Assembly: GCA_965215505.1 (NCBI GenBank)
Contig: OZ244065.1
Span: forward strand, 2,176,001 to 2,240,000
Direction: 5' to 3'
DNA from: Capsulimonadaceae bacterium
GTDB taxonomy: Bacteria; Armatimonadota; Armatimonadia; Armatimonadales; Capsulimonadaceae
Length of the DNA stretch: 64,000 nucleotides
The translations under genes were made by a program, and so were the position numbers. The notes under the pieces were generated by a model that was not told the origin of the DNA, did not search any database, and saw nothing but the letters and a program-made list of their open reading frames with translations. This document shows positions 3,155 through 48,527 of the stretch, in pieces. How positions within the stretch are numbered: position 1 is the stretch's first letter; each line of letters opens with the position of its first letter.

Positions 3155-4333
3155 ATGAATCACTTCCAAACCTCACGGCGCGTTGCCATCCTGATGATCG
3201 TCGCGGCCATGCTCGCAGTCCTGTGCCTCCAGAGGCCTTGCAGTGCCGATCGGCAGCCTTTCCTGCACGGTGCAGACCTGTCCATGCTCAAGGTTGACGA
3301 GGACGCAGGAGTCGTTTACCGGGATCACGGACGGTCGGGCGACTCCATCCAGATTTTCAAGCAGCACGGCTGGAACATGGTCCGCCTGCGGCTCTGGGTC
3401 CACCCGAGCGGACAGAGTGGGATGGTATGCGATTTGGGTTATGTTGGGGCTTTGGCACGGCGCGCGAAGGCCGCCGGAATGAAGTTCTACTTGGACATCC
3501 ACTACTCCGATACCTGGGCCGATGCGGGCAACCAGAAGAAGCCGGCCGCATGGGCCAACGACACATTCGACACGCCCCGCAAGCTTTACGAGGATGTCTA
3601 CTGGTACACATCGAACGTCCTCTACACGCTGGCCCACACCTACCATGCCGCCCCCGACTATGTCTCGATCGGCAATGAGATCACCTACGGCATGCTCTGG
3701 CCGGACGGCTACCTGGGAGCAGTCAAGGGGGCATGGAGCAACTGGACCAAGTATGCGACCCTGGTGAACAAAGGCATTCAGGGGGCGCAGCGCGGCGCCC
3801 ACAAAGCCGGCATGACGATGCCAAAGTTCATCATTCATGTCTCGTTCGGCCCGTATTGGAACGTCGTCAATGGCTTCTTCAGCGGCCTCACGTCGGCACG
3901 GGACATTACGGGGCAGCCGGTAAGATTCGACGTCATCGGCCTGAGCTACTATCCAAACGACAAGACCGACCTGTCGGACATCAAGGGTGTGCTCGCGAAC
4001 TGCGCCCAGAAGTTCGGCAAGCCGATCTTGCTCTGCGAGACGGCTTATCAATATCGCGAGACCGGCAGCGCAAACAGCGGCCTTTATCCGCAGACCCCGG
4101 CCGGGCAAGCCGCCTATCTATCCGATCTGGTCACCGCCGTGAAAAACACGCCGGATGGACTGGGACTCGGCCTCTGCTACTGGGAACCGGAAGCGCTGCC
4201 GAATCCCGTCACCGACGCCTATGCGTATGGCAGTTGGCGGGACAGCGGATGGAGCGCCTTATTCGATACGCAAACGGGCGAGGCCGAGCCGGGAATCGCC
4301 GCCGTTGGCACAAGCGCCGCGAAGGCGAGATAA
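3155..4333 (+). CDS. GH53 endo-1,4-beta-galactanase, secreted
   Basis: GADLS, RLRLWVHP, DIHYSDTWADAGNQKKP, IGNEI, GLSYYP, CETAY, YWEP motifs; signal peptide after ATG 3155. Confidence 0.9.
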   Translation: MNHFQTSRRVAILMIVAAMLAVLCLQRPCSADRQPFLHGADLSMLKVDEDAGVVYRDHGRSGDSIQIFKQHGWNMVRLRLWVHPSGQSGMVCDLGYVGALARRAKAAGMKFYLDIHYSDTWADAGNQKKPAAWANDTFDTPRKLYEDVYWYTSNVLYTLAHTYHAAPDYVSIGNEITYGMLWPDGYLGAVKGAWSNWTKYATLVNKGIQGAQRGAHKAGMTMPKFIIHVSFGPYWNVVNGFFSGLTSARDITGQPVRFDVIGLSYYPNDKTDLSDIKGVLANCAQKFGKPILLCETAYQYRETGSANSGLYPQTPAGQAAYLSDLVTAVKNTPDGLGLGLCYWEPEALPNPVTDAYAYGSWRDSGWSALFDTQTGEAEPGIAAVGTSAAKAR

Positions 4334-4494
4334 GCTATCACCGGCTACCCTTGGTTTGGCTATCGATTTTGCCCACTGGGCCCGGATTTCGGGGAGAAGA
4401 CGTTAGCGTACGAATTTTGGTTCATCGGCACTTTCGCTGAAGCTTGCCTCCTTACGGCGTCGCGTCAAGATGCCAGGATGGGTAAAACACCCGT

Positions 4495-4685
4495 ATGTCT
4501 ACCCAGTCGATCCTGCCCGGCCTGCATCGCTTGGCGCTTGACGGGCTGCGCCTTTCCCAAGAAGTCGTCGTGGTCCAAGTCCACGCCGTCGGCCACACTG
4601 CTCTGTGCCCCCTCTGCGGCCATGGGGCGGAACGTGTCCACAACCGCTACCCGCGCACACTCCAGGACCTGCGCTGGCAGGGAAA
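4495..4685 (+). pseudogene. ISL3-family transposase N-terminal remnant (zinc-finger part only)
   Basis: CPLCG..RVHNRYPRTLQDLRWQG matches the ISL3 zinc-finger region; similarity stops abruptly after WQG. Confidence 0.7.
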
Positions 4686-42342: not shown

Positions 42343-43413
42343 TCAGCGCCCCCGCGACCGACCGGCTTGGAGTGTGACGAGGCCCGTCCCATCGGGGTTC
42401 TCCACCAGCGCGGCCTCGACGGGCAGGAACTGCGGGACGACCCACAGCACGGTCCGCAGGTGTTCTGTCACCTGAGAGGTCGTCCAGCGGCTCTCGCCCG
42501 CCGTCAGCGCCATCGGCAGGACAAGCTGGTCCGCCAGATGCTCCTCGCAGGCCGCGCCCGTCTCCCACCACGCTTTGAAGGCGTGGCAGACCTCCTCGGC
42601 GACGGCTTCCATGCGCTTGCCGCGCTCGCCGATGGCGGAGAAACCCGCCAACCCGCCTTCGCACTCGGCGACCAGAAGAACGGCAGCCCCCGCCCCGACC
42701 GAGGGCGCTTCGCGCATCTCGGTGGATAGCTCCACCGGCAGGCGACCCACTTCCTGACGCACGGCGGCGACGCCTCTCTCAGCGACGGTCGGAGGCAGCC
42801 CTGATGTCACGACGAGGGCCGTCACGGCGCGCAATCCGCCCCGCTCCGTCAACGTGATAGGCGAAATCGCGGCGTTCCCCGCGACCTCGGCACTCACCGC
42901 CCCTCCCCCTTTAGGAAAGAACCCCGCCTTCGGCGACAGCAGAGAAGCGGCCAGGCCGTGCCGCGCCAGTGTCGGCAGATAGACGCGCTCCAGGTAGTCC
43001 GCCGTCGGCGCGTGCGAGACGTGCGTCCCGCCGGTGACGGTGACGCGGGAGGCGGCAGGGGCAAAGGCGAGCGGCATCAGGACGGTTTGCAGGACGAGGG
43101 CCGTCGCCCCCGCCGTGCCGATGGCGAAGTGGTAGACGCCGTGCGTCGGCGGTGCCTGTGGGGCGAAGCGGAGGCGGACCGACCCGATCTCCGCGCCTTC
43201 CAGCGAGGCCGCACACAGCTCGGCTGCGGCCTTGACCGAGGCAAGATGCTGGGGCTGGAGGCCGGGCCGGGCGCGGCCCGCGCGTATCCGCACGATCTCG
43301 ACGGGCCGCCCCGTCAGGGCCGATAGGGACAGGCTCGTCCGCAAAATCTGCCCGCCGCCCTCCCCGTGCGACCCGTCAATGGTGACGCTGGATTGTGTGT
43401 CTAAGTTCTTCAT
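42343..43413 (-). CDS. rtcA: RNA 3'-terminal phosphate cyclase
   Basis: DGSHGEGGGQILRTSLSLS, RPGLQPQHL, GGTH, EHLADQL, TEHLRT. Confidence 0.95.
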   Translation of the reverse strand: MKNLDTQSSVTIDGSHGEGGGQILRTSLSLSALTGRPVEIVRIRAGRARPGLQPQHLASVKAAAELCAASLEGAEIGSVRLRFAPQAPPTHGVYHFAIGTAGATALVLQTVLMPLAFAPAASRVTVTGGTHVSHAPTADYLERVYLPTLARHGLAASLLSPKAGFFPKGGGAVSAEVAGNAAISPITLTERGGLRAVTALVVTSGLPPTVAERGVAAVRQEVGRLPVELSTEMREAPSVGAGAAVLLVAECEGGLAGFSAIGERGKRMEAVAEEVCHAFKAWWETGAACEEHLADQLVLPMALTAGESRWTTSQVTEHLRTVLWVVPQFLPVEAALVENPDGTGLVTLQAGRSRGR

Positions 43414-43430
43414 GGCTGTCTTAGTATTCC

Positions 43431-43558
43431 CGTGCAGGCAGCGCGCCTATCCGAGACTTGTGCCCCTTCGGGGGCGGCAGGCGTCGGATCTTGGTGTTCG
43501 CTTTTGGAGACACGGACCGCCCGTGACCTCCCTTGATGGCGGCGCGCATGCATGCACG
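43431..43558 (-). ncRNA. Candidate ~128-nt structured RNA between tRNA-Arg and rtcA
   Basis: Ends pair (CGTGCA-t-GCA-t-GCGCGCC with GGCGCGC-TGC-c-TGCACG) and enclose two hairpins; no family recognised. Confidence 0.35.
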
Positions 43559-43561
43559 AAG

Positions 43562-43637
43562 TGGTGCTCCCGACAGGATTTGAACCTGTGGCCTCGACCG
43601 TCGCAGGATCGCGTTCTATCCGCTGAACTACGAGAGC
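43562..43637 (-). tRNA. tRNA-Arg(GCG)
   Basis: 76-nt cloverleaf: GCTCTCG/CGGGAGC, A20, anticodon loop CT-GCG-AC, TTCAAAT, encoded CCA. Confidence 0.85.
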
Positions 43638-43647
43638 AATTCGAAAA

Positions 43648-43718
43648 CTCCTCGACCCGGATTCGAACCAGGGCGAACGCATTAACAGTGCGTGATGCTG
43701 CCGCTACATCATCGAGGA
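43648..43718 (-). tRNA. tRNA-Asn(GTT)
   Basis: TCCTCGA/TCGAGGA, G73, ACGCA-CTGTTAA-TGCGT, TTCGAAT; no CCA. Confidence 0.85.
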
Positions 43719-43763
43719 TCACGGCCCAGCGGTCTGTCATGACCGCCGGACCAAGTTAGAGAA

Positions 43764-43836
43764 TCGTGGCGGTGGGAATTGAACCCACGATTTACAGGGT
43801 ATGAGCCTGCCGCCTTACCAGCTTGGCTTCGCCACA
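43764..43836 (-). tRNA. tRNA-Met(CAT), atypical
   Basis: TGTGGCG/CGCCACG-A, GCAGG-CTCATAC-CCTGT, GTGGG-TTCAATT-CCCAC; no CCA. Confidence 0.8.
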
Positions 43837-43889
43837 ATGCCGTCTCTCGCTGCCCCTACCAGTCAGGGGGCAGGGGCAGAGTCCGGACG

Positions 43890-44123
43890 TCAGATGTCTG
43901 ACGCCCGGCGCGTGTGCTTGTAGTCCTGGCTGCGCTCGCGGACATATTCCACGGGCTGCCGCGCCCCGGCCCCGGTGACCTCCCAGCCGTCCTGGGTGAT
44001 TCCGTCCTCCGTCAGCCGCAGGAACCGCCCGACGACGGCGTGCTTCTCCGGTATCCAGGCCATCTGGTGCGCTGGCCCCCGCCGGAGCCGGCACTGGACG
44101 TAGTACTGTGTGTAGCCGGACAT
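43890..44123 (-). CDS. Small hypothetical protein (77 aa)
   Basis: MSGYTQYYVQCRLRR...RRASDI*; strong RBS GAAGGAG. Confidence 0.7.
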   Translation of the reverse strand: MSGYTQYYVQCRLRRGPAHQMAWIPEKHAVVGRFLRLTEDGITQDGWEVTGAGARQPVEYVRERSQDYKHTRRASDI

Positions 44124-44149
44124 GATGTTTCTCCTTCCCTTTCTGACTG

Positions 44150-44782
44150 TTACACGGCGGCCCGCGCGACCAGCGCCTGGCTGATCGCGGCGGGTACTTC
44201 GGCGTAACCGGCGACGCTCATCGAGAACGACGCCCGCCCCTGCGTCAGCGAGCGCAGGTCGGTCGTGTAGCCGAACGTCTCGGCGACCGGGACGGTGGCC
44301 CGCACGACGGCCGTGCCGTCGGCCAATGCGCTCTGGCCCAGAAGATGCCCGCGACGCCGGGCGATGTCCCCCAGCACCGGCCCGACGAAGCCGCCCGGCG
44401 TCAGCACTTCGACCAGGCCGATCGGCTCGATGAGGATCATCGGCGCGTGCTTGCAGGCATCCAGGAACGCGAGACGCCCCGCCTCGGCGAAGGCGTAGTC
44501 GGTCGAGTCCACCGCGTGCCAGCTCCCGTCCACGACCGCCACCCGCACGTCCACCACGGGGTAGCCCGCCAGGACGCCGCCGGCCATCGCACTCCTGACG
44601 CCCTTCGCGATGCTCGGGAGGAAGATGCGGGGGATGACGCCGCCCACGAGGCCGCTGACGAACTCGAACCCCGCCCCCGCCTCCAGGGCTTCCAGCATAA
44701 GGACGCAGTACGCCTTCTGGCCTTTGCCGCCGTTCTGCTTGTCCACGCGGCCTTCGCCGCGATATCTGGTCTGGTCGGTCAT
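44150..44782 (-). CDS. Stand-alone elongation factor G domain IV-V protein (no GTPase domain)
   Basis: KQNGGKGQ, GGVIP, GYPVVDV, DGSWHAVDS, EPI, GDIARRRG, FGYTTDLRSLTQGRA; own RBS GAAGGAG, with a tRNA directly upstream. Confidence 0.88.
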   Translation of the reverse strand: MTDQTRYRGEGRVDKQNGGKGQKAYCVLMLEALEAGAGFEFVSGLVGGVIPRIFLPSIAKGVRSAMAGGVLAGYPVVDVRVAVVDGSWHAVDSTDYAFAEAGRLAFLDACKHAPMILIEPIGLVEVLTPGGFVGPVLGDIARRRGHLLGQSALADGTAVVRATVPVAETFGYTTDLRSLTQGRASFSMSVAGYAEVPAAISQALVARAAV

Positions 44783-44815
44783 GGTCTTTCTCCTTCGTTC
44801 CCGGCGTTCGAGTGA

Positions 44816-44888
44816 AGCGGAAGGCGGGGCTTGAACCCGCAGCCTTCATGGTGGCACCGTGACGCTCCGCCGATTGAGCTACTTCCGC
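44816..44888 (-). tRNA. tRNA-Gly(GCC)
   Basis: GCGGAAG/CTTCCGC, U73, TCACG-GTGCCAC-CATGA, TTCAAGC; no CCA. Confidence 0.8.
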
Positions 44889-44925
44889 ATTGACTTAGTT
44901 CCGCGTGTCCTGCTCGTGGCAGGGA

Positions 44926-45000
44926 TGGAGATGGTCGGAATCGAACCGACGGCCTCCTGTTCTTCAGACAGGCGCTGCTACCGGACTGAGCTACATCTCC
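44926..45000 (-). tRNA. tRNA-Phe(GAA)
   Basis: GGAGATG/CATCTCC-A, CCTGT-CTGAAGA-ACAGG, TTCGATT; no CCA. Confidence 0.85.
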
Positions 45001-45016
45001 ACAATCAACAGCCGAG

Positions 45017-45053
45017 ACAAACAAAACGGCCTCTCGCGTAGTGCGGGAGGCCG
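45017..45053 (-). terminator. Intrinsic terminator C, upstream of tRNA-Phe
   Basis: GGCCTCCCGC-actac-GCGAGAGGCC followed by GTTTTGTTTGT. Confidence 0.75.
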
Positions 45054-45082
45054 GAGGGTTCATGGTGTGGCAGGATCGCTTG

Positions 45083-45247
45083 CTACAGCAAACGCTCCCT
45101 CCCCCATAAACCCTTCGCCCCCGCCATAAAGCGGGCACCGCCCATCGCCTGGACCTGACCTAACCCCGGCGTGACACGGCTCAGAATCAGGCGGCTTCCC
45201 GCCTGGTTCGCTTGAGCCGGTATGAAATTATTATTTGTCGCTATCAT
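45083..45247 (-). CDS. Putative leader peptide C (54 aa)
   Basis: MIATNNNFIPAQANQAGSRLILSRVTPGLGQVQAMGGARFMAGAKGLWGRERLL*; contains a G-rich segment complementary to the 5' arm of terminator C. Confidence 0.55.
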   Translation of the reverse strand: MIATNNNFIPAQANQAGSRLILSRVTPGLGQVQAMGGARFMAGAKGLWGRERLL

Positions 45248-45258
45248 TGCTGTTTAGG

Positions 45259-45267
45259 AGTATACCA
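45259..45267 (-). promoter_or_regulatory. Extended -10 promoter (internal P2)
   Basis: TGG-TATACT, 11 nt upstream of the leader C ATG, in an AT-rich stretch; no clear -35. Confidence 0.5.
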
Positions 45268-45337
45268 CGGTTTCATGGCAAATAACCATAAAGTTTACGG
45301 AGCTATCAATTTTATTTTCATGGCCGGTTGATCTGGA

Positions 45338-45409
45338 TGGGGACGCAGGGAGTTGAACCCTGACTTCGCGCTTAAAAGGCGCACACACTGACCGTTATGT
45401 TACATCCCC
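45338..45409 (-). tRNA. tRNA-Lys(TTT)
   Basis: GGGGATG/CGTCCCC-A, TGCGC-CTTTTAA-GCGCG, CAGGG-TTCAACT-CCCTG; no CCA. Confidence 0.82.
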
Positions 45410-45425
45410 GTCTTCTGACGCCGCC

Positions 45426-45464
45426 ACAAAAAGATCGGCCCCGCGCTGTCTGCACGGGACCGAT
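45426..45464 (-). terminator. Intrinsic terminator B, upstream of tRNA-Lys
   Basis: ATCGGTCCCGTGC-agaca-GCGCGGGGCCGAT followed by CTTTTTGT. Confidence 0.78.
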
Positions 45465-45488
45465 TGTGTCTGTCTCTTTTCCTCTTCC

Positions 45489-45641
45489 CTAAAGCGGTGG
45501 GAGGAGCCGCCGATGAGGCGGCGACACGATCGGTCCCAGTATGAAGTTTTTGAGAAAGCCTGAAGCCGGGCGTAGCAGAGCCACGGCCAGGCGGTGACCC
45601 GGCATCATCTTTGTATTGCGTTTCGTCGTCAGGCTGGTCAT
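45489..45641 (-). CDS. Putative leader peptide B (50 aa)
   Basis: MTSLTTKRNTKMMPGHRLAVALLRPASGFLKNFILGPIVSPPHRRLLPPL*; contains GGGACCGAT, the exact complement of the terminator B 5' arm. Confidence 0.55.
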   Translation of the reverse strand: MTSLTTKRNTKMMPGHRLAVALLRPASGFLKNFILGPIVSPPHRRLLPPL

Positions 45642-45676
45642 TAGGTTTCGTCTCGGGTCAAGTAGGCGGGCGAATG

Positions 45677-45721
45677 CAAACACAAAACGCCCGCCTTCGG
45701 CACGGTGGCAGAAGGCGGGCG
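45677..45721 (-). terminator. Intrinsic terminator A
   Basis: CGCCCGCCTTC...GAAGGCGGGCG (11-bp perfect stem) followed by TTTTGTGTTTG. Confidence 0.8.
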
Positions 45722-45757
45722 CTCGGAAAAAGGTCTTCCTGCGGGCTGGGCGCGAGG

Positions 45758-45874
45758 TCACTCGCGCCAGCCACCTCCTGCGGGGATAGGGCGACGCCCC
45801 TGGAAACCGAATGAGGGTTTCAGGGTGCCGCCGACCATCGGGCCGTTATTCGGTTGTTTCAGGGGCGAGTTCAT
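45758..45874 (-). CDS. Putative leader peptide A (38 aa)
   Basis: MNSPLKQPNNGPMVGGTLKPSFGFQGRRPIPAGGGWRE*; GCAGGAGGTGG can pair with CCGCCTTCTGC of terminator A. Confidence 0.6.
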   Translation of the reverse strand: MNSPLKQPNNGPMVGGTLKPSFGFQGRRPIPAGGGWRE

Positions 45875-45884
45875 CGTGGGGGAC

Positions 45885-45914
45885 ACTCTACCCGACGCGC
45901 ACTGCCGTTGTCAA
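45885..45914 (-). promoter_or_regulatory. Sigma70 promoter P1 of the tRNA/rtcA locus
   Basis: TTGACA (45914-45909), 18 bp, TAGAGT; leader A ATG 10 nt downstream (near-leaderless). Confidence 0.6.
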
Positions 45915-45983
45915 GAGCAGACGGAAAGTTTTTCGCGGCGGCAGGAATTCCGCCGTGCGTGCGGTATAGTCTAGGGGAAAGAA

Positions 45984-48527
45984 ATGTCACCTAACGCCCC
46001 CACGAAGCCTCATTCCAAGCGCCCCCCGGCCGCACTGGCGACTGTCGTCCTGTTGTCGCTGCTGTCCTGGATGGCGCTGGCCGGTCCCGCCGCGCCGGAT
46101 GCTGTCGCGATCCGGCCTCTTGACAAGGCCGAAGCGCGCGGTGTCAATTACCGGCATCAGATCCAGCCGCTTCTGGCAAGCCGCTGCGGCCAGTGCCACG
46201 GCGGGGCCGCGCCGTCGGGGGGCCTCAGCGTCGTGTCACTGGCCGCGCTCCTGCGGGGCGGCGCGCACGGGTTGGACATAGTGGTCGGCAAGCCCGACGA
46301 GAGCGCGCTGATCCAGTATGTGCGCGGGCTGAGGACGCCCCGGATGCCGATGAGCGGCCCCGCCCTCTCGGTAGACGAGGTCCACTTGCTGCGCGAATGG
46401 GTTTTCGCCGGGGCGCGTGACGACGCGGTGGCAGGTGGCGCGGCGGGCGTCCAAGCGCGTCCCATCGCTCAGTTGCCAATCGAGGACGAGTCGGGATTGA
46501 GTCTCGCCGAGCTGCGGGTCAAGCACCTGGCCCGGCTGCCCCGCGCGCCTGCCGTCCCGGTCGTCAGTGCGCCCGCCTTCAACGAGATCGACCGCTTTAT
46601 CGCGGCGAAGTGGCGGGAAAAGAAATTCCCCACGCCGCCGGTCTGCGACGATAATGCCTTCGTGCGGCGGGTCTATCTAGACGTGGTCGGCGTCATCCCA
46701 ACGACCGCGCAAGCGCTGGCCTTTGTGCAGGACAGGACTCCCGGCAAACGAACGCGCCTCGTGGACGGTCTGTTGGCCCGTGATGACGACTACGCAGCCA
46801 ATTGGACTCCCTTCTGGGAGGACGCGCTGGCCTCCAACGGCGCGCACCAGGGCGGGGCCGGGTCACGCCCCAACCTGCGGTCCTGGCTTGCCGAGAACCT
46901 GCGGCACAACCGGCCCTATGATGAGATGGTCGCCGAACTGATCGACCCCACTTCTAGCGGCCCGACGGCCCCGCTGGCGCGCGGCTGGATACAGAACGCC
47001 GACCACACCGAGACGGCCCAGAGCGCGGCGTATGTCGCCCAGGTCTTCATGGGCACGGCGGTCAAGTGCGCCTCCTGCCACAACCACTTCCTGAACCCCG
47101 AGTGGCCCCAGAAGAAGTTCATGGGCTATGCCAGCTACTTTACGCCCCAGAACATGGAGGTGATCCGGTGCGAGGTGCATGAAGGCGAGTTCGTCCCGCC
47201 CACCTTCCTGTTCGACCAGCCGAGCGCGCGCAATGCCGCCGCCCACACGCCGCTCGATCAGGACCACCGCCTGCGTCAAGTTTCGCGGCTGATCGTGGAC
47301 CCCGAAAACCCCCGCTTCGCGACCTGTATCGTCAACCGCCTTTGGAAGCGCTACTTCGGCCTGGGCCTGGTCGAGCCGGCCGACGACTTCCGGGCGGAGG
47401 GCCGCGCTCCGAGCCACCCGGCCCTGCTGTCCTGGCTGGCCGATGATTTCATGCGCCACGGCTACGACCTGAAGCACACGATCCGGCTGATGCTGACCAG
47501 CCGCACCTATCAGCTCCGCTATGACCCGCGCCTGGCCGACACGTTCAGCGCCGCCGCCCCGGACGCCCCGCGCTTTTACCGCTCCCCCACCCTGCGCCGC
47601 CTGACCGAGGAGCAGCTTCTGGACAGCGTGAACGTCGCCATCGGCAACACGGGTGCGCCGCGCGCTTATTTGGACGGCGACTCGACCGCCCTTTCGCGCG
47701 CCCTCGGCAAGCCCGCCGCCCGTAACGAAGTTTCGACATCGCGCTCCGATGATGTCGCCGTCGTGCAGGCTCTGGAACTCCTGAACGGCGGGGAGTTCAA
47801 CCGCCGCGTCGCACTTGGAACGCTGGACCGGGAGTTGTCGGAGGAGCCGGAGTGGCCGCGCATCGTCAGCCGCGCTTATTGGGCGACACTGGGCCGCGCG
47901 CCGACTTCTAAAGAACTCGGGGCCGGCAACCAGTTTTTAGAAGCCGCACCGCCCATCCCGCCGAGCAGTCAGACCCCAACCGAGGCCATGTGGTGGGAGG
48001 ACGGCCCGCCCGCCGGGACGATGCTGCAAGGGCCGTGGCAGATAACCTCGGGCCTCGTCTACTCCGGCAAACAGGCCCACACCGCGCCCATCATGGCGGG
48101 CGCACAGCAGCACTACTTTCTGGGCGCGGCCACGCCGCTCTCCGTCGGGATGGGTGATACGCTGTTTACCTACGCTTATCTTGACCCGAAGGCCATGCCG
48201 CGCGAGGTCATGCTTCAGTGGAACGACGGCCTCTGGGAGCATCGGGCGTTCTGGGGCGAAGACCTGATCAACTTCGGCACGACGGCCACAACAAGCCGTC
48301 GGCGAATGGGCGACCTGCCCGCACCGGGAAAATGGGTGCGCCTGGAGGTCGCCGCCGACGCCGTGGGTCTGGCCGGGCACGAGATCGGTGGGATGTCTTT
48401 CGACCAGTTTGACGGGCGTGTCACGTTCGACCACAGCGGCGTGGTCCACGCCGTCCCGCCGCGCCCGGCCATCGTGGATATGCTGTGGGCGTTGACGGTC
48501 AGCCCGGAGTTCCAGTATATCCGGTGA
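45984..48527 (+). CDS. Planctomycete-type cytochrome c + DUF1549/DUF1553 (PSD1) protein
   Basis: CGQCH haem motif, FVRRVYLDVVG, CASCHNH, VNRLWKRYFGLGLV, PSHPALLSWLA, SPEFQY. Confidence 0.88.
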   Translation: MSPNAPTKPHSKRPPAALATVVLLSLLSWMALAGPAAPDAVAIRPLDKAEARGVNYRHQIQPLLASRCGQCHGGAAPSGGLSVVSLAALLRGGAHGLDIVVGKPDESALIQYVRGLRTPRMPMSGPALSVDEVHLLREWVFAGARDDAVAGGAAGVQARPIAQLPIEDESGLSLAELRVKHLARLPRAPAVPVVSAPAFNEIDRFIAAKWREKKFPTPPVCDDNAFVRRVYLDVVGVIPTTAQALAFVQDRTPGKRTRLVDGLLARDDDYAANWTPFWEDALASNGAHQGGAGSRPNLRSWLAENLRHNRPYDEMVAELIDPTSSGPTAPLARGWIQNADHTETAQSAAYVAQVFMGTAVKCASCHNHFLNPEWPQKKFMGYASYFTPQNMEVIRCEVHEGEFVPPTFLFDQPSARNAAAHTPLDQDHRLRQVSRLIVDPENPRFATCIVNRLWKRYFGLGLVEPADDFRAEGRAPSHPALLSWLADDFMRHGYDLKHTIRLMLTSRTYQLRYDPRLADTFSAAAPDAPRFYRSPTLRRLTEEQLLDSVNVAIGNTGAPRAYLDGDSTALSRALGKPAARNEVSTSRSDDVAVVQALELLNGGEFNRRVALGTLDRELSEEPEWPRIVSRAYWATLGRAPTSKELGAGNQFLEAAPPIPPSSQTPTEAMWWEDGPPAGTMLQGPWQITSGLVYSGKQAHTAPIMAGAQQHYFLGAATPLSVGMGDTLFTYAYLDPKAMPREVMLQWNDGLWEHRAFWGEDLINFGTTATTSRRRMGDLPAPGKWVRLEVAADAVGLAGHEIGGMSFDQFDGRVTFDHSGVVHAVPPRPAIVDMLWALTVSPEFQYIR

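Follow-up and report, generated by a model that had tools for sequence, protein, structure and literature searches.

Three short leader modules precede the spare tRNA genes of a Capsulimonadaceae bacterium (Armatimonadota), and we consider it probable that they act as ribosome-mediated transcription attenuators gating these genes in two transcription units. The locus lies in a window of 64,000 nucleotides (nt), the whole stretch of DNA that was analysed (positions 2,176,001 to 2,240,000 of contig OZ244065.1). Each module, here called A, B or C, consists of an open reading frame (ORF) followed by a terminator hairpin, with a strand inside the ORF that is predicted to pair with the 5′ arm of that terminator. 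The modules are real and conserved and very probably cis-regulatory. Support for the attenuation reading is strong for B, moderate for the family as a whole and structurally weak for A and C in the window.

Leader–terminator modules lie in front of a spare tRNA cluster

The cluster comprises six tRNA genes in 1.85 kb on the minus strand (Table 1). The genome holds 63 tRNA genes, and all six cluster anticodons (6/6) occur again elsewhere in it; the cluster copies are only 59–70% identical to the copies with the same anticodon. The cluster is therefore spare (supernumerary), its tRNAs being duplicates of the housekeeping set and divergent from it.

Modules A and B lie one behind the other in front of tRNA-Lys. 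The −10 hexamer of their promoter sits 10 nt 5′ of the ORF A start codon, so that the mRNA of A is predicted to be nearly leaderless. Both promoter hexamers are retained, as judged by eye, in the syntenic relative (genome G012) and in four other A-type modules. Downstream of ORF A, a hairpin carrying the stop codon in its loop is followed by a small hairpin and then by terminator A; an alignment of other A-type modules shows, by eye, further hairpins whose loop contains or adjoins the stop codon, with different stem letters. In G012 (locus L062, 12434–12470), the terminator A hairpin is retained and its T-run is degraded, so this first gate may be weak or lost there. A 90-codon frame starting with GTG (45761–45489), which stands behind a Shine-Dalgarno-like AGGAGG and runs through terminator A, was rejected: G012 has this frame closed, and genome G015 lacks the GTG.

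Module C stands in front of tRNA-Phe. Its ORF starts 11 nt 3′ of an extended −10 element, and the promoter block containing this element is conserved, by eye, across the C-type modules of relatives. The preliminary description had placed all three modules in series. This holds for A and B on tRNA-Lys, but C has its own conserved promoter, and the locus therefore forms two units and not three gates in one series. A further promoter call from a consensus scan (45256–45227) was judged to be due to chance, its hexamers not being kept in relatives, unlike the extended −10 at 45267–45259. At the base of the long C hairpin, the helix shows seven pairs with compensatory changes among nine C-type sequences.

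The three frames, the three hairpins with T-runs and the quoted segments of the preliminary description were all found in place on the minus strand. Terminators B and C had been said to end about 16 nt before a tRNA; their stems end 24 and 25 nt before tRNA-Lys and tRNA-Phe, respectively, with about 16 nt left after the T-run. Only two promoter-like sites were found in 43000–47000, and none falls within these 24–25 nt gaps. A simple consensus terminator scan returned B in full and the five-pair inner part of A and did not list C, giving two sites as compared to 2.6 expected in shuffles. The locus has the short upstream ORFs of leader-peptide attenuators, intrinsic terminators without an intervening promoter, an antiterminator in B and, at the level of the family, cognate control codons.

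An ORF-internal strand is predicted to pair with the terminator arm and covaries in B-type modules

As a measure of complementarity, we took the strongest duplex that the terminator 5′ arm with its flank can form with the 3′ end of each ORF (75 nt in B and C, 60 nt in A) and compared it to dinucleotide shuffles. The complementarity proposed for B stood up best: GGGACCGAT (45537–45529) forms nine perfect pairs with ATCGGTCCC (45464–45456), the pairing extends to 14 positions with one C·A mismatch (45537–45524 with 45469–45456), and none of 200 shuffles matched the duplex (−27.3 kcal/mol, z −5.45). For A, the 11 pairs with two G–U described earlier between GCAGGAGGTGG (45781–45771) and CCGCCTTCTGC (45718–45708) are present, but the duplex is only marginal against shuffles (−28.0, z −2.17, 10/300 as good); it exceeds shuffles in the three closest of the six A-type modules. 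The pairing first proposed for C, GGGAGG (45103–45098) with CCTCCC (45050–45045), was not supported. It is absent from every predicted fold; the terminator C arm pairs there with 45124–45116, and GGGAGG is buried in the long hairpin (45113–45056). C-type duplexes of five relatives reach z scores of −3.8 to −6.6, and in 21 of 32 leaders the complementarity between ORF and terminator arm was matched by at most five of 200 shuffles.

Covariation in homologous leaders, a check suggested in the preliminary description, was found for the B-type antiterminator. Across 19 sequences the helix (columns 47–60 with 141–154 of alignment A1) is 79.7% paired, with four pairs changed on both sides and a covariation score of 0.180, as compared to 0.099 ± 0.013 in shuffles (0/500 as high) and at most 0.126 in slid controls. 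The antiterminator is about as good in these terms as the B-type terminator (85.7% paired, score 0.233). One U of the module has an A partner in the antiterminator and a G partner in the terminator. One compensatory pair spans a valine/alanine codon change, which places the constraint on the RNA. The C-type extension onto the terminator arm is 77.8% paired, but the near-invariant terminator leaves it unable to covary.

All three modules fold much better than shuffles (z −6.16, −3.85 and −4.95). In module B of the window, two folds are nearly equal in energy, and the minimum free energy (MFE) structure is either the antiterminator or the terminator, depending on the transcript ends. Folding with and without ribosome footprints, likewise suggested earlier, produced a switch in B: placing a ribosome 20 nt upstream of the strand lowers the predicted probability of the terminator from 0.91 to 0.15, and a position on the strand or at the stop codon gives 0.97. 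In transcripts cut before the terminator 3′ arm, all three 5′ arms pair with an ORF-internal strand (P 0.79–0.86), and a ribosome covering the strand lowers this pairing to 0.40–0.59. The partner of the terminator arm in such a truncated fold is 45771..45781 in A; in C it is 45124–45116, paired with a probability of 0.79, or 0.59 with a ribosome over the strand.

Leader composition follows the downstream tRNA genes

To relate leader peptides to the genes behind them, we summed, over 32 leaders, the excess frequency of residues whose tRNA is encoded in the next sub-cluster. This composition score is 2.53, as compared to 0.004 ± 0.35 with permuted tRNA sets (0/20,000 as high), and all 17 testable amino acids deviate in the expected direction. 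The match is specific to the reading frame, the cognate share being 20.7% (412/1995) in the leader frame versus 12.3% and 14.1% in the other two. It persists under an uncurated ORF rule (35 modules; z 6.6) and with one leader per 60%-identity cluster (27 leaders; z 6.6). When leaders are collapsed to ten types, one of 50,000 permutations scores as high, and the own tRNA set ranks first to third in nine of the ten.

Cognate residues are concentrated where a slow ribosome would matter for the proposed switch: they make up 31% of the ten codons before the antiterminator strand, as compared to 13% of the N-terminal part and 16% of the codons past the strand. Lysine is encoded by AAA in 15 of 19 cases (6.3 expected). 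Trp, Met, Phe and Ile residues are gained or lost together with the tRNA genes among leaders of Trp-Pro-Met-Phe, Trp-Pro-Phe, Pro-Phe and Trp-Pro-Met-Ile clusters. Twelve of 15 nearest-pair contrasts are positive and three negative (p = 0.018).

As for the window itself, 19 of 37 residues of ORF A (p = 0.003) and 22 of 53 of ORF C (p = 0.03) are cognate to the six tRNAs of the cluster. Lys, Phe, Met and Asn together account for 26 of 139 residues in the pooled leaders, against a background of 8.2% (p = 6e-5). Directly before the strand, six of seven codons are cognate in C (before 45124) and five of seven in B. The genome-rare codons AAA and AAT are over-used in these leaders, serving four of six Lys and five of nine Asn residues.

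The modules recur in relatives with open frames and fixed spacing

A terminator lies 7–65 nt upstream of 36 of the 60 tRNA sub-clusters examined in relatives, and an ORF ends 15–50 nt before the terminator in 35 of these 36. The 32 curated leaders have their stop codon 22–47 nt before the stem (24–38 nt in 30 of them). A sister-family control covered 32 further tRNA sub-clusters, mostly single genes: 24 have no terminator within 70 nt upstream, five have too little upstream sequence, and the three with a terminator are all multi-gene clusters. In the own genome, a hairpin with a T-run lies within 70 nt upstream of 11 of the 63 tRNA genes. Modules in the loci examined always lie 5′ of genes and never stand alone.

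The frames of the leaders are maintained. The syntenic G012 retains all three modules with the stops at the same places, despite in-frame indels (a 57-nt insertion in ORF B, 3 nt in ORF C). In G015, where A and B precede tRNA-Pro and tRNA-Met, ORF A carries a 39-nt in-frame deletion. ORF A remains open with an unchanged stop position in both genomes, and ORF B is open in both. The ratio of nonsynonymous to synonymous substitution rates (dN/dS) is below 1 in all 12 computable leader pairs of 13 (0.28–0.79, values that the protein-guided alignments may bias downwards); for ORF B against G012 it is 0.37. The in-frame indels and these ratios are indirect signs that the leaders are translated. The preliminary description had recognised the geometry of ribosome-mediated attenuation, and the conserved ORFs, the fixed stop-to-terminator spacing, the B-type covariation and the frame-specific cognate match strongly support its core idea of translated leaders with alternative folds gating tRNA genes; the C pairing is unsupported and that of A marginal.

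A-type modules occur in six genomes from three genera, and the exact A-type pattern in 3 of 71 genomes of the order. The order A-then-B is also seen in G012, G015 and G066, as well as in G061 and G062, where an ORF lies between A and B. This ORF (loci L066 and L063, respectively) is conserved, encodes 66–73 amino acids (aa) and has a strong Shine-Dalgarno motif between terminator A and leader B; module A would therefore gate a protein gene first in these two genomes. Exact-pattern scans of public collections returned nine genome contigs and four metagenome contigs. Seven of nine public contigs sharing the C terminator are titled Armatimonadota, Armatimonadales or Capsulimonadaceae. The exact C-type terminator was also seen in L025 and L030, filed under Janthinobacterium and Sulfurifustis metagenome-assembled genomes; the tRNA order of L025 is that of the Armatimonadota relative G018, and the placement of both suggests mis-binning or transfer.

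No Pfam or NCBIfam family matched leader A, B or C. Only tRNA exceeded the Rfam gathering threshold in the window and four related loci, the T-box model had no match in 44700–46100 even at E up to 10, and a permissive Rfam threshold yielded only weak microRNA-like matches that reflect the long hairpin of C. In many loci, leaders of the B and C types were seen to share conserved N-terminal codons, with Asn codons at about positions 5–7, and otherwise different B and C leaders also have a central GTCACGYC-like DNA motif. These shared codons and the motif may point to a peptide or RNA requirement of the switch.

The same switch family precedes RNA-repair genes

A covariance model (R1) of the B-type terminator and its flank was searched against 151 genomes of the phylum. 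It matched 13 of them at E ≤ 0.01, with strong matches only in the own genus; weak matches beyond the order resembled ordinary terminators that follow long ORFs, and were discarded. Eight new B-type modules were found in this way, three before tRNAs (Lys-Phe, Tyr and Lys) and five before RNA-repair genes, namely RtcB (PF01139) three times and RNA ligase (PF09414 with the PHA02142 OB fold) twice. One of the three RtcB ORFs was Pfam-scanned, and the other two were recognised by eye from their likeness. The element thus serves a wider range of translation-repair genes as a 5′ control element acting in cis. Since the same switch family precedes RtcB and RNA-ligase genes, it looks like a control element of a translation-damage response. 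In G013 (L131 627–1481, minus strand), an ORF with weak NUMOD3, DUF559 and restriction-endonuclease-like matches lies between the B-type leader–terminator and RtcB and may be a homing-endonuclease-type insertion.

A model for gating by translated leaders

The anatomy, the conservation, the B-type covariation, the composition match and the spare nature of the tRNAs are observed; translation of the leaders, their leaderless starts, the influence of ribosome position, the direction of regulation and its physiological trigger are inferred. On this basis, we propose the following sequence of events. Unit 1 would run from the promoter at 45914–45885 through leader and terminator A and leader and terminator B into tRNA-Lys, placing A and B in series on this gene. 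Unit 2 would run from the promoter at ~45296–45259 through leader and terminator C into tRNA-Phe, tRNA-Gly, an EF-G fragment, a small ORF and tRNA-Met, Asn and Arg. The A and C transcripts would start 4–6 nt before the ATG, with the first ribosome trailing the polymerase. A strand 8–16 codons before the stop codon could pair with the terminator 5′ arm. A ribosome that keeps pace with the polymerase would cover or pass this strand, or sit between strand and arm, so that the terminator forms and transcription ends. A ribosome lagging at the cognate-rich codons upstream of the strand would let the strand capture the terminator arm, and the polymerase would read through into the tRNA genes. The spare cluster would thus be made when decoding is slow.

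Several observations weigh against this reading. A search of RNA runs for the locus found none that contains it. On the structural side, the C duplex in the window, which lies in a G-rich context, is no better than chance (−25.2, z +0.1, 107/200 shuffles as good), and the A pairing does not exceed shuffles in the three more distant A-type modules (z −0.2 to −1.1). In equilibrium folding, unlike B, terminators A and C keep a probability of at least 0.96 in every footprint state. Classic attenuators likewise have the terminator as their more stable fold, with a kinetic choice between the folds, and stability at equilibrium alone therefore does not refute the model for A and C. In the folding model, the strand stays uncovered while a ribosome waits at the B or C stop codon; termination would then require either a ribosome lagging on the strand or some steric effect. 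ORF B lacks its own promoter in this genome, and reading the sequence directly revealed no Shine-Dalgarno-like motif 5′ of its ATG.

The composition match has its own weak points. ORF B is not enriched overall (17/49 cognate, p = 0.22). At the codon level, the match beyond Lys is weak (395/633 versus 367.7 expected). The six closest pairs, which include all three negative contrasts, lie near zero, so that the match is not tracked between closest relatives. Of three out-of-sample leaders, only the one in front of a Trp-Pro-Met-Ile cluster is significant (13/33 cognate, p = 0.001), unlike the other two (p = 0.73 and 0.25). Because the sequences are related, independence is overstated by the permutation figures, and the ten leader types were drawn partly by tRNA content, which weakens the type-level permutation. 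Finally, the leaders before RtcB and ligase genes show that codon matching is dispensable for the existence of the element.

Alternative explanations

The same translated switches might sense any slowing of translation, be it by antibiotics, ribosome damage or general starvation, rather than the supply of the downstream tRNAs, in which case the composition match would be a by-product or weak tuning. Such a sensor would sit well with homologous leaders in front of RtcB and RNA-ligase genes, which offer no tRNA to match, with closest relatives that have different tRNA sets and do not differ in leader composition, with the two non-significant out-of-sample leaders and with the weak codon-level match apart from Lys. 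The long array of cyanobacteria, moreover, is induced by general translational stress according to the available text of PMC8421152. We nonetheless think it rather unlikely that general slowing is all that is sensed, given that the match is frame-specific and strong across leader types, that cognate residues are concentrated directly upstream of the antiterminator strand, and that Trp, Met, Phe and Ile come and go with the tRNA genes in Trp-Pro-type clusters.

If, on the other hand, the ORFs were independent small-protein genes with their own promoter and terminator, the tRNAs would arise from constant leaky read-through and the terminators would keep spare genes low. No Pfam or NCBIfam family covers any of the three leaders, their C-terminal halves are free to vary in length and sequence, and their composition follows the tRNAs behind them. 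The ORF-internal strand covaries with the terminator flank across the valine/alanine change, a constraint at the RNA level, and the modules are never found alone. This makes the small-protein account improbable in our view, even though each module has a promoter-ORF-terminator layout, dN/dS is below 1, N-terminal residues are conserved across leader types, and no equilibrium fold of A or C loses the terminator. An untranslated structured RNA, such as a riboswitch, a protein- or tRNA-binding T-box-like leader or hairpins for tRNA-precursor processing, with frames that are incidental in G+C-rich DNA, would account for the folding of all three modules and for conserved hairpins that attenuation does not need (the stop-codon hairpin and small hairpin of A, the long hairpin of C). 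However, the Rfam scans returned tRNA only and no T-box, the frames stay open through in-frame indels, the spacing from stop to terminator is fixed, and the composition match is confined to the leader frame; we regard this as the most improbable of the explanations.

Within the attenuation reading, a more specific possibility can be put forward tentatively. The switches may form a closed feedback loop, in which a near-leaderless test peptide, made up of the amino acids that the downstream tRNAs carry, admits the polymerase only when those tRNAs fail. With the same switch driving RtcB and RNA ligase, and with RtcA and the EF-G fragment beside or within the clusters, this would amount to a ribosome-sensed response to tRNA damage, for example by anticodon nucleases, and leader-peptide attenuation of tRNA genes would then be known for the first time. 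Such a coherent tRNA-damage response is suggested by the association with RtcB, RNA ligase and RtcA. The covarying B-type helix and the matched codons define precise mutations for direct testing.

Organisation of the locus and its relatives

A tRNA array unit or long array (L-array) is defined as at least 20 tRNA genes at a density of at least two per kb, according to the available text of PMC4758250; the window cluster, with six genes in 1.85 kb, stays below this size. Homologous arrays of relatives comprise 13–24 tRNAs in a common gene order and are broken up by the same modules as well as by the EF-G fragment, the small ORF, RtcB and RNA ligase. The window cluster is a reduced relative of these long tRNA arrays. 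Its neighbouring proteins carry PSCyt, PSD1 and DUF1501 domains. A hairpin/T-run finder detected no terminator directly upstream of tRNA-Met, Asn and Arg.

Table 1. Features of the tRNA cluster and its leader modules (coordinates within the window)
Feature	Coordinates	Strand	Remarks
Promoter of A+B unit	45885..45914	−	TTGACA, 18 nt, TAGAGT; 10/12 consensus matches; sigma-70-like
Leader ORF A	45758..45874	−	38 codons (38 aa) + TGA
Candidate antiterminator strand of A (GCAGGAGGTGG)	45771..45781	−	Invariant in G012 and G015
Hairpin with ORF A stop codon in loop	45744..45772	−	MFE fold
Terminator A	45678..45722	−	Stem-loop 45722–45687, T-run to 45678; −27.2 kcal/mol
Leader ORF B	45489..45641	−	50 codons (50 aa) + TAG
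Antiterminator 5′ strand of B	45524..45537	−	Within ORF B, codons 35–39
Antiterminator 3′ strand of B	45456..45469	−	Overlaps first 9 nt of terminator 5′ arm
Terminator B	45425..45464	−	13-pair stem 45464–45434 + T-run; −24.8 kcal/mol; covariation
tRNA-Lys(UUU)	45338..45409	−	Spare copy; 59% identical to the genome's other Lys(UUU) gene; presumed gated by A+B
Promoter block of unit C	45259..45296	−	A+T-rich; extended −10 (TG, one base, TATACT) at 45267–45259
Leader ORF C	45083..45247	−	54 codons (54 aa) + TAG; stop in apical loop of long hairpin
Predicted antiterminator strand of C	45116..45124	−	Partner of terminator 5′ arm before 3′ arm is made
Long hairpin of C	45056..45113	−	Holds last ORF C codons + stop; base abuts terminator C
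Terminator C	45018..45053	−	Stem 45053–45027 + T-run; −18.2 kcal/mol; near-invariant across relatives
tRNA-Phe(GAA) + tRNA-Gly(GCC)	44816..45001	−	First genes presumed gated by C
Rest of presumed C operon	43562..44782	−	EF-G domain IV–V ORF, 77-aa ORF, tRNA-Met, Asn, Arg
tRNA-Met, Asn, Arg	43837–43562	−	Last three genes of presumed C operon

Several protein-coding genes accompany the cluster. Inside it, a stand-alone ORF of 210 aa (44150–44782, minus strand) encodes EF-G domains IV and V only (PF03764, PF00679); it aligns to ~487–690 of EF-G models, has a Shine-Dalgarno-like motif upstream and is present in the arrays of G012 and G061 as well. The 77-aa ORF (43890–44123, minus strand), which matched no Pfam or NCBIfam family, recurs within the arrays of at least eight relatives, usually directly before a Leu/Ile/Met/Asn block, and lies 3′ of the RNA-ligase gene in G013 and G008. 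RtcA (RNA 3′-phosphate cyclase; 42343–43413, minus strand) follows 148 nt past the last tRNA on the same strand, and RtcB or RNA ligase lies inside or beside the arrays of relatives.

Outside the window, the own genome carries a second array fragment (L082, 539–817 and about 4400–4540) with a B-type promoter, a 73-codon leader, a terminator and tRNA-Tyr, followed by an RtcB-like ORF with its own terminator 7 nt before tRNA-Ile(UAU). Two tRNA-like features of relatives were also observed. In G018 (L012 and L070), 3′ of the C-type module, a tRNA-Phe gene that ARAGORN did not call appears to be split: its 3′ part, which begins with the anticodon arm, is ~110–150 nt away from the 5′ part, and this may reflect an intron or insertion. 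A conserved spacer element of ~200 nt, present in arrays of G066 (L067, about 3170–3420), G005 (L071), G016 (L072) and G014 (L068), ends in a tRNA-like T-arm and acceptor end and may be an intron-bearing or otherwise unusual tRNA; in L067 and L071, the two loci scanned, only tRNA exceeded the Rfam threshold.

Comparison with known systems

In the amino-acid operon attenuators of enterobacteria, the position of the ribosome selects the fold. The proposed switch follows the logic of these systems (trp, his, phe, thr, leu and ilv), which share with the modules reported here a short leader ORF, an intrinsic terminator, an antiterminator overlapping the terminator 5′ arm and cognate control codons (for such attenuators see PMC1183508 and PMC3082878). 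They differ in that the targets here are tRNA genes (and, in relatives, RNA-repair genes) and not biosynthetic enzymes, and in that the control codons form a mixed set for several tRNAs and not a single-codon run. The leaders here have 38–90 codons, with A and C predicted to lie on near-leaderless mRNAs. Their stop codon comes after the antiterminator strand and before the terminator, and an anti-antiterminator (1:2) hairpin could not be clearly established in these modules. T-box riboswitches bind uncharged tRNA directly, without a ribosome, and control synthetase and amino-acid genes. Like the switch proposed here, they report the state of a specific tRNA through transcription antitermination, yet no T-box model matched in the window.

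Attenuators induced by antibiotic stalling, such as bmrB-bmrCD of Bacillus subtilis (PMC4191407) and the mef/mel leader (PMC4335068), likewise combine a leader and a terminator. According to the available text of both sources, their translated leaders allow read-through when a ribosome stalls and act as sensors of impaired translation; they react, at specific peptide motifs, to ribosomes with a bound drug, and the genes under their control confer resistance. The leaders studied here, in contrast, follow the downstream tRNAs in their composition and have no known arrest motif.

As regards the target genes, the array of Anabaena (PCC 7120) resembles the present cluster in its supernumerary, divergent tRNA genes, its dense block and its link to rtcB, as far as described in the available text of PMC8421152 and PMC10272220. 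This text has the array silent by default, with induction upon impaired translation, names Planctomycetes and further phyla as array carriers, and calls the regulation of individual tRNA genes largely unknown (PMC8421152). Control of the Anabaena array, by the same account, is exerted on the promoter by the repressor TrcR and involves direct repeats (PMC8421152), whereas we propose control at elongation by leader peptides. The Anabaena promoter repeat motif has no match in the window at up to one mismatch, and the text of PMC8421152 contains none of the words attenuat-, leader and terminator. A full-text literature search, which was partly judged on titles and the beginnings of abstracts and had subscription journals and supplements outside its scope, found no published description of tRNA-gene attenuation.

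Should the proposed mechanism be true, it would extend the logic of attenuation from amino-acid supply to tRNA supply, and would constitute a second, mechanistically explicit control of long tRNA arrays besides the cyanobacterial repressor. What differs from classic leader-peptide attenuation is the targets, the mixed control codons, the predicted leaderless layout and the position of the stop codon.

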